64,000 nt of DNA from Squalus acanthias (taxonomy: Eukaryota). The translations under genes and the position numbers were made by a program. The DNA lies in the NCBI GenBank assembly GCA_030390025.1, contig CM059431.1, forward strand, positions 95,358,001 to 95,422,000, given 5' to 3'. The notes below the pieces were generated by a model that was given only the letters and a program-made list of their open reading frames with translations, did not search any database and was not told the DNA's origin. Positions 48,542-51,500 of this stretch are shown piece by piece (position 1 is the first letter of the stretch; each line of letters opens with the position of its first letter).

Positions 48542-51500
48542 GGGTGCCACGGAGAAGCGGTGGTACAGGCGGCTGTGATCAGATTGTCCAAATCCATGAG
48601 AGAACAGCCTATGGCTACAGTTAAAATAGGAAATAGCCATTTGGACCTTCTGGTCGATACCGGTGCAACAATGTCCTCTGTACCCCGCTCCGTGGATATA
48701 CCCGCCAGTCAATTTAACGTTGTAAGCATGGGAGTAGCCGGTATCCCTATGTTAGAACCCCTCTCCAAACCTACCGAAATTCAAGTGCACGGGCAATCCG
48801 TCACAGACACCCTCATAATTTCCCAGACCGCCCCTCTCCCTATGTTGGGAAGACAGGGTTTATGTAAATTGGGAGCAGTTATATACTGCACTCAAGGCGG
48901 CATGTTCATGGAACTGCCTCAAATACAAACTCATCAGCTAATGAATTTAATGATAGAGAAAAAGCAAGTAGACGGAGCCCCCATTTTGTACTGCTGGCAG
49001 CTGAATAGCAATCCTTATGGCCAATTGGTAAAAAATGTATACCAAGCCTTGCAGGAATTGGAAGATCCTCAGGGGCAGTATTTACAATATCTAATTGAAA
49101 CCAGTAGAGAAAAGAAACGGACCCATTGTACGGCATGGTACACGCATAAAGAAACACCCAATTATCAAGAATTGGTTTGCTCATACCTAAACCAGCCAGA
49201 ATTGCTGCAGATTTCACCTTATTTATTCTTTGGAGATAAAGGCCTGGGAATGTTGGTTCACCTTACACACGAACAAAAAGAAAGATTTAGGATGCATCAC
49301 ACATCCGAACCCCACCTGACTATAGCAGTCAGAGCCCCGGCTAAGGCGAAGGAAGTGGGGGAGATGATAAAAAGAATACAACACCACAAGCCAGTCTATT
49401 CCATCACATTGCCAATTCAAGCTGGAAAGGTGGAGATAGAATTCTTTAATGAAACAGAAGGAAAAATTCGCTGGTTAAGAAAAGAATGGGATACTATTTT
49501 TGAAAGACAGCAGCCCCCTAAGGAAAATCCGCAATTGTCACCATAGGCATTGACTAAAGTACCTTGTGAATTATGGGCAAAGCACAAGAATCATGTGGGA
49601 AAGGTGCATTTGGCACCTGAACATAGGGTCCAGCCACAGAAGAATGCTGTTTTGCCCTGTCTAAAGCAGTACCGCCTGGCCCCAGAGGCCGAGGAAGGAA
49701 TAGCAGCAGTAATACATTCTTTACTGCAGCAAGGGGTTTTAGTCAAAACACAGAGCCGCTGCAACACTCCTATTTTGCCCATCCCGAAAGTAGGATGACC
49801 AAATGACTGGCGTTTTGTGCAAGATCTCCGGGCGATCAATAAAATAATCATTCCCATTGCTCCCTTGGTGCCAGATACCAACATCATCCTCTCCTCTATA
49901 CCAGCTGATGCAACTACCTTTTCGGTTATCGATTTGTGTTCTGCTTTCTTCTCCATACCACTGCATAAGGACAGTCAATATCTGTTTGCCTTTACTTATA
50001 AAAATCAGCAATATACCTGGACCAGGTTGCCCCAGGGGTATACTGAAAGTCCTGCGGTGTATGCGGCAGCGGTTAAAAATGACTTGGAGGAATGTCAGTT
50101 ATCGGATCAGTCCACCTTAATCCAGTACGCAGATGACCTTTTGGTTGCCTCCCGAACCGGGCCAGACTGCCAAAAAGATACTATAAAATTGCTCCAGCAT
50201 CTGGCTAGCAGGGGACACAGGGTGTCCTCCGAAAAGTTGCAGTTCTGCCAAACGTCCGTCCAGTATTTGGGTTTTCAGTTGGAATATGGACAGCGAAGAT
50301 TGGGACTGGAAAGAATAAGACCAGTGGATAAAGTGTCGATCCCGCGAACAAAGAAGGACATTTTGTCGTTTCTGGGAATGGTGGGTTATTGTAGACAATG
50401 GATATATGACTACAGAGAAATGGATGCGGTCTTACGATCAGCTACGCTGCAGACAGTGCCCCCCATAGTCGAATGGACGTCAGAACGAGATAAGGCATTC
50501 AGTTATCTAAAAAAGGCTATGGTCAGTGCTCCCACGTTAGGACTACCTAAGTATAATAAGCCTTTTCAGTTATACATCAATGAAAGAGAAGGCTTTGCAA
50601 CAGGAGTACTGGCACAAGAACATGGGGGAGGAAAAAGGCCTGTAGCATATTACTCTAGCCTTAGCAGCCGTAGTGAGAGGCATGCCAGCCTGCTTACGAG
50701 CCATTGCTGCAACCGCCACAATAGTGGAAAAATCCATCCCTATTGTTCCCCACGCAGTACTGCTATTATTAAATTCGGCAGCTACTCAGCACTTTACGGC
50801 GGCAAGAAGGACTGGGTATGAGATAATCCTCTTGTCACACTCTAATTATACCTACCAGCGATCACCAGCTGTCAACCCGGCGACCTTTGTGCCAATACCA
50901 ACAGAATATCCAGATGAACCAGAGCACGACTGCTTGTTAACTGTTGAAGCCACCACTACACCCAGGCCAGATTTGCTAAGTGATCCTATTGATAATCCTG
51001 ACTTGATCCTCTTCACGGATGGTTCTTCGCACCGACCTAGTGATGATCAACTATTAGCAGGTTATACGGTGGTGACTCCTCATGAAGTATTGGAAGCTTA
51101 TGCGTTGCCACCTGGCACATCTGCACAGGCAGCTGAACTATATGCATTAACCAGAGCCTGTATTTTGGCTAAAGATCAAAGCGTCAATATCTATACTGAC
51201 TCCCGTTATGCATTTGGGGTAGTGCATGATTTTGGACAATTATGGAAAAACAGAGGTTTTATTACATCCTCAGGAAAACCTATTAAGCATGCGCAAATGG
51301 TGTTAAATTTGTTGGAGGCTATTCAGTTGCCAAGTAAAATTGCAGTACTAAAATGTGAGGCCCACACCATGGCAGGTGATGAAGTCTCATGTGGAAATAG
51401 GTTTGCTGATAGTGCGGCTAAAGAGGTCGCACTGAGGCAGGTCCCACAGCTTCAAGCCGCCAAAAATACCGTTAGTAACTTTCCTCCAGAACTTCCTAGT

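Follow-up and report, generated by a model that had tools for sequence, protein, structure and literature searches.

A predicted CNPase-like 2H phosphoesterase domain between protease and reverse transcriptase in an endogenous retrovirus of the shark Squalus acanthias

In the 64,000-nucleotide stretch of Squalus acanthias contig CM059431.1 analysed here (the window), the protease and reverse transcriptase (RT) of an endogenous retrovirus (ERV) are separated by an insert that is a real conserved domain. According to structural modelling, the insert adopts a two-lobed alpha+beta 2H phosphoesterase fold, and the solved structure closest to the predicted one is the catalytic domain of CNPase. 2H/CNPase domains of fish retroviruses have already been published, and the window insert is a new, divergent representative from a shark lineage.

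The provirus spans positions 45896-56339 and is bordered by LTRs that are 98% identical (45896-46289 and 55946-56339, aligned by blastn over 394 nt with 8 mismatches and no gaps). Its features are as follows:

45896..46289, plus strand: 5' LTR, beginning with TGTGGG (blastn between the flanks)
46769..48541, plus strand: gag, in three frames, 46730-47101, 46998-48101 and 48068-48541 (list of open reading frames; PF00098 zf-CCHC, E 8e-7, in 48068-48538)
48542..48949, plus strand: retroviral aspartic protease (PF00077 RVP, E 2.1e-8, residues 21-114 of the 48542 frame)
48950..49520, plus strand: predicted CNPase-like 2H phosphoesterase domain, P0001 (open frame of 190 aa; homologues, conservation, predicted fold)
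49124..49132, plus strand: 2H motif I, H59-C-T61 (sequence; conservation in homologues)
49313..49321, plus strand: 2H motif II, H122-L-T124, preceded by P121 (sequence; conservation in homologues)
49544..49546, plus strand: in-frame stop at the junction of the 2H domain and RT (list of open reading frames; a sense codon here in the sawshark protein P0002)
49547..50821, plus strand: RT (PF00078, E 1.1e-29; PF17919, E 5.6e-14; list of open reading frames)
50646..51524, plus strand: RNase H, in a frame different from that of RT (PF00075, E 7.9e-24)
51525..52561, plus strand: integrase, in two frames, 51525-52082 and 52244-52561 (PF00665, E 1.8e-16; PF17921, E 1.4e-8)
52793..55869, plus strand: presumed env, in pieces 52793-53440, 54443-55273 and 55609-55869 (list of open reading frames; assigned by position only)
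55946..56339, plus strand: 3' LTR (blastn between the flanks)

The gag gene opens with MGNNGS, codes for a CCHC zinc knuckle near its end and terminates at the TAG codon 48539-48541, which is in frame with pro. The RT part has MLV/XMRV-type RTs as its top matches in the PDB (E about 1e-73), the MLV-type alignment beginning only at the VPCELW region; the RT frame is interrupted by a stop at 49796-49798 and lost near the 3' end. The tblastn match of one of the homologues, P0009, extends to 52602. No Pfam family was found in the env pieces, and the env region is interrupted at about 53409-54317 by an RT fragment of a non-LTR retrotransposon (PF00078, E 1.6e-8, in 53409-53858). Having LTRs, a zinc-knuckle gag, an in-frame stop before pro-pol, an MLV-like RT, RNase H and integrase, the element is a class I (gamma/epsilon-type) retrovirus. 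The provirus is dead owing to stops, frameshifts and the LINE insertion; the reading frame of the 2H domain is intact, so that this copy is usable by itself, with the rest of the provirus left untouched. At the stop codon 49544-49546, the contigs of all three other sequencing runs covering the site differ from the window within the codon. A single 60-letter contig of run X8 possibly skips 735 bases, from 49262 to 49998, with 30 letters on each side.

Translation of 48950-49520 on the plus strand gives 190 codons without a stop, lying in a stop-to-stop frame of 48542-49546, and the following frame starts at 49547 with VPCELWAKHKNHVG. The landmark GAVIYCT..GMFMELP is present at the protease end, and RTHCTAWY and EPHLTIAV within the insert; the two His codons, 49124-49126 and 49313-49315, correspond to insert residues 59 and 122. 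The preliminary description of this DNA, which spoke of about 190 additional residues with two HxT motifs whose His codons begin at 49124 and 49313, 63 codons apart, was thus exact. The uninterrupted frame it also reported holds within the insert but not for Pol beyond it, where stops occur at 49544-49546 and 49796-49798. As for the location between protease and RT, a Pfam scan places RVP upstream of the insert and RVT_1 downstream, and the same order is found in the homologues P0002, P0009 and P0010, each of which has protease, insert and RT on a single chain; scanned as a single sequence, the insert proper matches no Pfam family. All four catalytic residues, H59, T61, H122 and T124, are retained in the window copy. 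When its 190 residues were shuffled 20,000 times, at least two H-x-[TS]-hydrophobic motifs appeared in 3.6% of the shuffles, and two such motifs 50-100 residues apart in 1.3%. Because pairs of this kind arise in 1.3-3.6% of shuffles, the motif pair alone is modest evidence, and the case for a predicted 2H domain is carried, beyond that pair, by conservation and the modelled fold.

The insert has 31 homologues, coming from sharks, one ray and teleosts, which together with the window copy make an alignment of 32 rows. His-1 (H59) is kept in 24 of the 25 rows covering it, with T or S at position 61 in 25/26, while His-2 (H122) is kept in 30/30 covering rows, T/S124 in 29/30 and P121 in 29/30; conservation of the HxT motifs among homologous ERVs, proposed earlier as a check, is therefore confirmed. 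The nearest relative of the window insert is protein P0002 of the sawshark Pristiophorus japonicus (562 aa, protease-insert-RT; E 3.1e-33, 41% identity), in agreement with the earlier suggestion of a probable shark retrovirus. P0009 (1358 aa) and P0010 (1065 aa) comprise protease, insert, RT and RNase H, and integrase Pfam families are present on P0009 only. A search with a profile of the domain gave 26 matches, and among the 15 bearing a species name ten are from teleosts. No related DNA was found among viral contigs or metagenome contigs in the search for related loci. It is likely that the 2H domain is a stable Pol module (protease - 2H - RT - RNase H - integrase) of class I fish retroviruses, and the sequences suggest that a lineage carrying this module became endogenous in sharks, rays and teleosts.

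Within the shark pair no part of Pol is less conserved than the insert: identity is 40% there, 62% in protease and 70% in RT. This, the frequency of the motif pair in shuffled sequences and the absence of a Pfam family at threshold would suit a spacer or structural module of Pol devoid of catalytic activity, or a linker with motifs arisen by chance. Such a reading is nevertheless very improbable, since the rows that keep the catalytic His and Thr/Ser are merely 16-41% identical to the window copy, and the structural match to CNPase described below, at Z 11.1, is an isolated one. The linker with chance motifs was rejected, being contradicted by both conservation and the predicted fold.

Sequence comparison by itself gives marginal evidence for kinship with 2H proteins or CNPase. 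As a single query the insert found nothing in the PDB by phmmer or in a word-indexed protein search (418-1330 aa), and neither PDB phmmer nor a seven-row profile run against the PDB gave a match to ns2, the VP3 C-terminal domain or AKAP7. With the seven-row profile all 22 matches in the PDB were to CNPase or goldfish RICH (best E 0.011), both His motifs being in register. A domain-only profile of 20 rows did worse, with one match, 1woj, at E 1.7, and with the whole 32-row alignment RT matches swamped everything. For none of the 32 members did a Pfam 2H family reach its threshold; sub-threshold matches were seen to PF13563 in 5/32 (best E 0.014) and to PF02834 in 3/32 (best E 0.066), the window copy lacking even these, and PF05881 (CNPase) was absent from the scans of the 32 members even at E <= 10. 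The nearest clusters in the ESM Atlas carry PF08302 and PF22547, both of them 2H families (score 0.96), at a recognition value of 2191, which is below the tool's mark of 2300.

The fold was predicted by AF2 with the 32-row alignment (pLDDT 73.5, pTM 0.73); confidence is low near motif I, the mean pLDDT being 64 and 56 in residues 51-70, and a model built from the single sequence was uninformative (pLDDT 35). HCTA (residues 59-62) and HLTI (122-125) both lie within predicted strands. Foldseek against the PDB returned 29 matches at E <= 0.001, all listed rows being CNPase or goldfish RICH, with the top match at E 2.2e-5 and TM 0.52, just about 0.5. VIA-align, run over 48,161 chains, placed CNPase 2xmi_A first with Z 11.1 (rmsd 3.9 A, 162/190 residues aligned), the runner-up having Z 4.5; sequence identity to CNPase and RICH in the structural alignments is 11-18%. 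Other 2H enzymes (VP3, ns2, Usb1, ASCC1, Acb1, LigT, AKAP18 and CPDase) score between Z 2.3 and 4.2. The 2H fold for which a prediction had been asked is thus supported by the AF2 model and its CNPase match, and of the CNPase/LigT/AKAP7/ns2-like relatives that had been expected CNPase appeared clearly, whereas the ns2/VP3/AKAP7/Acb1 group (Z 2.9-4.2) is not the closest.

The likeness to CNPase and RICH (PDB 2xmi, 1woj and 2i3e) extends to motif I, which is H-C-T in them and in the viral insert alike; His-2 is preceded by Pro in the insert and by Ala in human and mouse CNPase in the seven-row profile alignments. CNPase bears an N-terminal kinase-like part and a lipid-anchor tail, whereas the viral domain is about 190 aa long and unaccompanied within Pol, leaving no room for either. 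Coronavirus ns2, the rotavirus VP3 C-terminal domain and the host AKAP7 belong to the same superfamily and have two HxT/S motifs, but their structural likeness to the insert is weak (Z 2.9-3.0 for AKAP18 in VIA-align).

The modelled fold does not fix the substrate of the predicted enzyme. Coronavirus ns2 and the rotavirus VP3 C-terminal domain are viral 2',5'-phosphodiesterases that destroy a host immune messenger, and the insert might likewise degrade 2-5A and so block OAS-RNase L. Both proteins are among the structural matches (ns2 4z5v, Z 4.0; VP3 4rpt, Z 4.2, and 6o3v, Z 3.6), and PMC10400998 reports a functional OAS-RNase L pair in the cartilaginous fish Callorhinchus milii, so that the pathway exists in the host class of the window copy. 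The model is, however, far nearer to CNPase than to ns2 or VP3, and the same paper puts the loss of the pathway at the base of the ray-finned fishes, yet teleosts account for ten of the 15 species-named matches. Such an activity is therefore unlikely, and the family at large is unlikely to have action against 2-5A as its sole role, given that ray-finned fishes lack OAS-RNase L; the OAS-RNase L antagonism put forward earlier fails as a family-wide explanation, many carriers being teleost ERVs.

A cyclic-dinucleotide phosphodiesterase, carried beside RT and degrading the 2'3'-cGAMP that cGAS makes on reverse-transcribed DNA, would suit the place of the domain next to RT in Pol. 2H enzymes cutting cGAMP do occur in the low-Z tail of the VIA-align matches (phage Acb1 7t27, Z 3.5; penguinpox cGAMP PDE 9bkq, Z 2.3), but they show no specific similarity to the insert past the common superfamily, and the established substrates of CNPase-type enzymes are 2',3'-cyclic mononucleotides and RNA ends, which makes this activity quite unlikely. 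The domain could instead serve the chemistry of viral nucleic acids, for example by opening a 2',3'-cyclic phosphate on primer tRNA or genomic RNA, and not be an immune antagonist at all. The CNPase-like predicted fold would agree with this, as would the ESM Atlas clusters with PF08302 (tRNA ligase, cyclic phosphodiesterase domain) and the fixed place beside RT in the three one-chain homologues. Against it, replication proceeds in most retroviruses without a domain of this kind, and the Atlas match is weak, its recognition value lying under the tool's mark; we regard this role as rather unlikely.

In the mechanism proposed here, ribosomes would read through the gag TAG, which is in frame between gag and pro, and make the 2H domain as part of Gag-Pro-Pol, and the viral protease would then excise it, so that it would be carried in the virion with RT. 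It would cleave phosphodiesters without need of a metal ion, its two His residues serving as general acid and base. Judging by the likeness to CNPase, its most probable reaction would be the opening of 2',3'-cyclic phosphates, whether of nucleotides or at the ends of RNA, and the likeliest gain for the virus may be the blunting of host defences that use RNA cleavage products or nucleotide messengers.

Related domains of fish retroviruses have been described before. Mazumder et al. (2002) are said to have dealt with the 2H domain of walleye dermal sarcoma virus (WDSV), and teleost epsilon-like ERVs encoding CNPase were reportedly the subject of Basta et al. (2009; J Virol 83:10152). Section 3.4.5 of PMC9503650 notes a 2H domain in a fish retrovirus, citing the former study, and the section 'Ray-Finned Fish' of PMC4977317 mentions, with reference to the latter, CNPase-encoding epsilon-like teleost ERVs with 'additional open reading frames'. 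As these fish-retrovirus domains are already in print, the type of insert is not new in itself. The class I ERVs of teleosts in the latter section have an additional CNPase-type coding region, as does the window provirus, and the teleost-type homologues P0009, P0010, P0012 and others are probably elements of the same kind. The window copy differs from them in forming, together with the sawshark protein, a separate clade in the tree (support 100/98), with 16-27% identity to the others. In the literature searched we found no functional study of fish-retrovirus 2H/CNPase domains and no report of them from cartilaginous fishes.

A search of BFVD structures brought WDSV and walleye epidermal hyperplasia virus 1 as matches 2 and 3 (E 1.8e-5 and 4.3e-5), both entries bearing the label 'Envelope polyprotein'. 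WDSV is another fish retrovirus reported to have a 2H domain, and the label is that of a gene other than Pol; the comparison is one of structure only. The earlier remark on 2H domains in some teleost retroviral Pol proteins is right in that fish retroviruses possess them, as stated in the sections of PMC9503650 and PMC4977317 named above, but the walleye entries are assigned to the envelope. One reading, which we consider rather doubtful, is that fish retroviruses put a 2H phosphodiesterase in two genes, Pol and Env, and that the Pol copy of shark and teleost ERVs is carried in the virion and destroys 2'3'-cGAMP, 2-5A or immunostimulatory 2',3'-cyclic-phosphate RNA ends. If true, the placement in Env would be that of the walleye viruses, and the Pol version would operate within incoming reverse-transcription complexes; it would be to retroviruses what poxins, Acb1 and ns2 are elsewhere, and would have persisted from a time before these viruses were common to sharks and bony fishes.

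To our knowledge, retroviruses are not usually credited with enzymes attacking nucleotide-based immune signalling. A conserved domain which looks catalytically intact and lies beside RT in ERVs of sharks, a ray and teleosts is a candidate for such an activity, and it may also serve as a marker by which an old lineage of fish retroviruses can be traced over vertebrate classes.

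The candidate 2H phosphoesterase insert is part of a full-length provirus surrounded by 24-nt tandem repeats, the array extending on either side. Between the LTRs the order is gag, TAG, protease, insert, RT, RNase H, integrase, and presumed env; gag starts with MGNNGS and contains a CCHC zinc knuckle. As the RT part is best matched by MLV/XMRV-type RTs (E about 1e-73), the element is assigned to class I (gamma/epsilon-type).

Features of the provirus and its insert (window coordinates)
45896-46289, + strand: 5′ LTR, 394 nt, 8 differences from the 3′ LTR
48539-48541, + strand: TAG stop of gag, in frame with pro
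48542-49546, + strand: stop-to-stop frame enclosing the insert; its residues 21-114, 5′ of the insert, form the protease (PF00077, Pfam E 2.1e-8)
48950-49520, + strand: insert, 190 residues
49124, + strand: His codon of RTHCTAWY (from sequence)
49313, + strand: His codon of EPHLTIAV (from sequence), 63 codons from the first
from 49547, + strand: next frame, with RT (Pfam RVT_1, E 1.1e-29, and RT_RNaseH_2)
55946-56339, + strand: 3′ LTR, 394 nt, 8 differences from the 5′ LTR

The CCACA bases adjoining both LTR ends may derive from the 24-nt repeat itself, and the array (44100-45895 and 56340-57470) contains long spurious ORFs on both strands, with repeats of ~8 residues. A G-rich stretch that could form a short stem (GTGCCAC ... 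GTGGTAC) follows the gag TAG (48539-48575), as would be expected for a gamma/epsilon-type readthrough signal.

The provirus is dead: gag is split over three frames, in-frame stops occur at 49544-49546, 49796-49798, and 51522-51524, the reading frame breaks off around 50650-50820 and again between positions 52082 and 52244, and the presumed env region is interrupted by a non-LTR retrotransposon RT fragment (~53409-54317). This fragment is related to the RT of a non-LTR retrotransposon that lies immediately 5′ of the repeats (41810-44113; open frame of 767 aa; RVT_1 E 2.8e-30). A second, distant retroelement RT, at 23735-24697, is found by tblastn with the homologous proteins P0009 and P0010 (20-23% identity, E 5e-10 to 1e-17) and has no 2H domain match. 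Between 22 and 70% of the 31-letter words sampled from 48542-50821 recur in 20 public sequencing runs under nine organism codes. Three or four further public runs, filed under different organism codes, have contigs ~98-99% like the window, so near-identical copies exist in several labelled organisms. Since these contigs depart from the window sequence within its first two stop codons (49544-49546 and 49796-49798) and at a pair of indel sites, one near 50655 and one near 50741, these four defects look private to the window copy.

The preliminary description, which placed two HxT motifs 63 codons apart in an uninterrupted frame, holds on the sequence itself: both His codons are where it put them, and all 190 residues are free of stops. 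The motif pair by itself is evidence of modest weight; among 20,000 shuffles of the insert, 3.6% contain at least two H-x-[TS]-hydrophobic motifs, and in 1.3% a pair is spaced by 50-100 residues. No Pfam family is matched by the insert sequence. A HMMER search against 1.84 billion representatives gave 7 proteins at E <= 0.001, the best being P0002 of the sawshark Pristiophorus japonicus (562 aa, E 3.1e-33, 41% identity), with the order protease-insert-RT; the domain is present in four further matches. P0003 and P0006 were dropped, being taken for repetitive proteins matching by chance. A "longer" search yielded P0009 (1358 aa) and P0010 (1065 aa), both ordered protease-insert-RT-RNase H, with integrase additionally in P0009, and a profile of seven domain rows found 26 proteins of 90-354 aa. 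Their named sources comprise the shark Chiloscyllium punctatum, the ray Narcine bancroftii, and the teleosts Merluccius, Takifugu, Austrofundulus, Girardinichthys, Epinephelus, Liparis, Arctogadus, and Boreogadus. The homologues P0016/P0042 (N. bancroftii) and P0021/P0045/P0046 (Girardinichthys multiradiatus) are annotated in RefSeq as multi-isoform host "uncharacterized protein" genes; they may represent co-opted parts of ERVs or simply ERV pieces picked up by gene annotation.

In the alignment of the window copy with 31 homologues, identity to the window copy is only 16-41%, while the motif residues are kept in nearly all covering rows: H59 in 24/25, T/S61 in 25/26, P121 in 29/30, H122 in 30/30, and T/S124 in 29/30. 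The sole covering row devoid of the first His, P0008, appears degraded. By these sequence comparisons the insert is a conserved domain.

AlphaFold2 modelled the insert with pLDDT 73.5 and pTM 0.73 from the 32-row alignment, and with pLDDT 35 from the single sequence. Foldseek of the model against the PDB gave 29 matches at E <= 0.001 (best E 2.2e-5, TM 0.52), and all among the matches listed are the CNPase catalytic domain or goldfish RICH. VIA-align, independent of Foldseek and covering 48,161 representative chains, placed mouse CNPase (2xmi_A) first with Z 11.1 (rmsd 3.9 A over 162 residues), the next match having Z 4.5. Other 2H enzymes are abundant in its low-Z tail: rotavirus VP3 (4.2), MHV ns2 (4.0), Usb1 (3.4-3.9), ASCC1 (3.3-3.7), Acb1 (3.5), LigT-like proteins (2.5-3.4), AKAP18 (2.9-3.0), plant CPDase (2.6), and penguinpox cGAMP PDE (2.3). 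On the predicted model, the nearest known structure is thus CNPase. Sequence-level matches agree weakly in direction: the 7-row profile met CNPase or RICH in 22/22 PDB matches (best E 0.011), in which the two His motifs are aligned, the broader 20-row profile did less well (one match, E 1.7), and the Pfam scan of the 32 members gave sub-threshold matches to two 2H families in 5/32 and 3/32 and never matched PF05881. The nearest ESM Atlas clusters carry the 2H families PF08302 and PF22547 (score 0.96; recognition value 2191, below the tool's 2300 mark). The originally proposed 2H phosphoesterase reading is therefore well supported by the conserved motifs and the CNPase-like predicted fold.

Given that all four 2H catalytic residues are retained in a CNPase-like fold, the domain is read as a putative metal-independent phosphodiesterase in working order. 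Readthrough of the gag TAG would yield it as part of Gag-Pro-Pol; it would probably be released by the viral protease and may be packaged in the virion. Its likeness to CNPase favours 2′,3′-cyclic phosphates, on nucleotides or RNA ends, as likely substrates. A dedicated anti-2-5A role is unlikely to explain the whole family: excerpts of PMC10400998 report a functional OAS-RNase L pair in a chimaera but loss of that pathway in the ancestor of ray-finned fishes, and many members come from teleosts (10 of the 15 matches with a species name). Cleavage of cGAMP by this putative phosphodiesterase is possible, as is action on the virus's own RNA or tRNA ends.

A maximum-likelihood tree was built from 20 domain rows, 12 of the 32 being excluded (for the most part fragments with a single motif, near-duplicates, and P0008, which is degraded). 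The window copy, the sawshark P0002, and P0007 form one clade (support 100/98), in which the very long branch of P0007 makes its placement unsure. In the other group, of 17 rows, the Chiloscyllium and Narcine rows nest on short branches within teleost ones, which hints at transfer of this retrovirus lineage between vertebrate classes. Identity between the window copy and P0002 is 40% in the domain, 62% in the protease, and 70% in RT, and between the teleost pair P0009/P0010 58%, 61%, and 72%, respectively; being lower in the domain in both pairs, it indicates that the 2H domain evolves faster than RT, which would fit a host-facing role without proving one.

A 2H domain of walleye dermal sarcoma virus (WDSV), reportedly described by Mazumder et al. 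2002, is cited in PMC9503650. A passage of PMC4977317, with reference to Basta et al. 2009, ascribes extra ORFs for "CNPase or macro domain proteins" to some epsilon-like ERVs of ray-finned fish. The words phosphodiesterase and phosphoesterase are absent from the term-searched text of the shark ERV paper PMC4422223, and literature searches pairing retrovirus terms with 2H, CNPase, or phosphodiesterase yielded neither a functional study nor any report from cartilaginous fish. A BFVD search with the model gave three significant viral matches: the unnamed entry Q2VF30_1 (E 5.1e-6) and the "Envelope polyprotein" of walleye epidermal hyperplasia virus 1 (E 1.8e-5) and of WDSV (E 4.3e-5). In these two exogenous viruses the 2H-like fold seemingly lies in Env, whereas in the window provirus it lies in Pol, and 2H domains may thus occur in two separate genes among fish retroviruses. 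The window domain is a new and divergent representative, from the shark lineage, of a type that had been noted before in fish retroviruses, and its intactness in the window copy allows direct functional testing.
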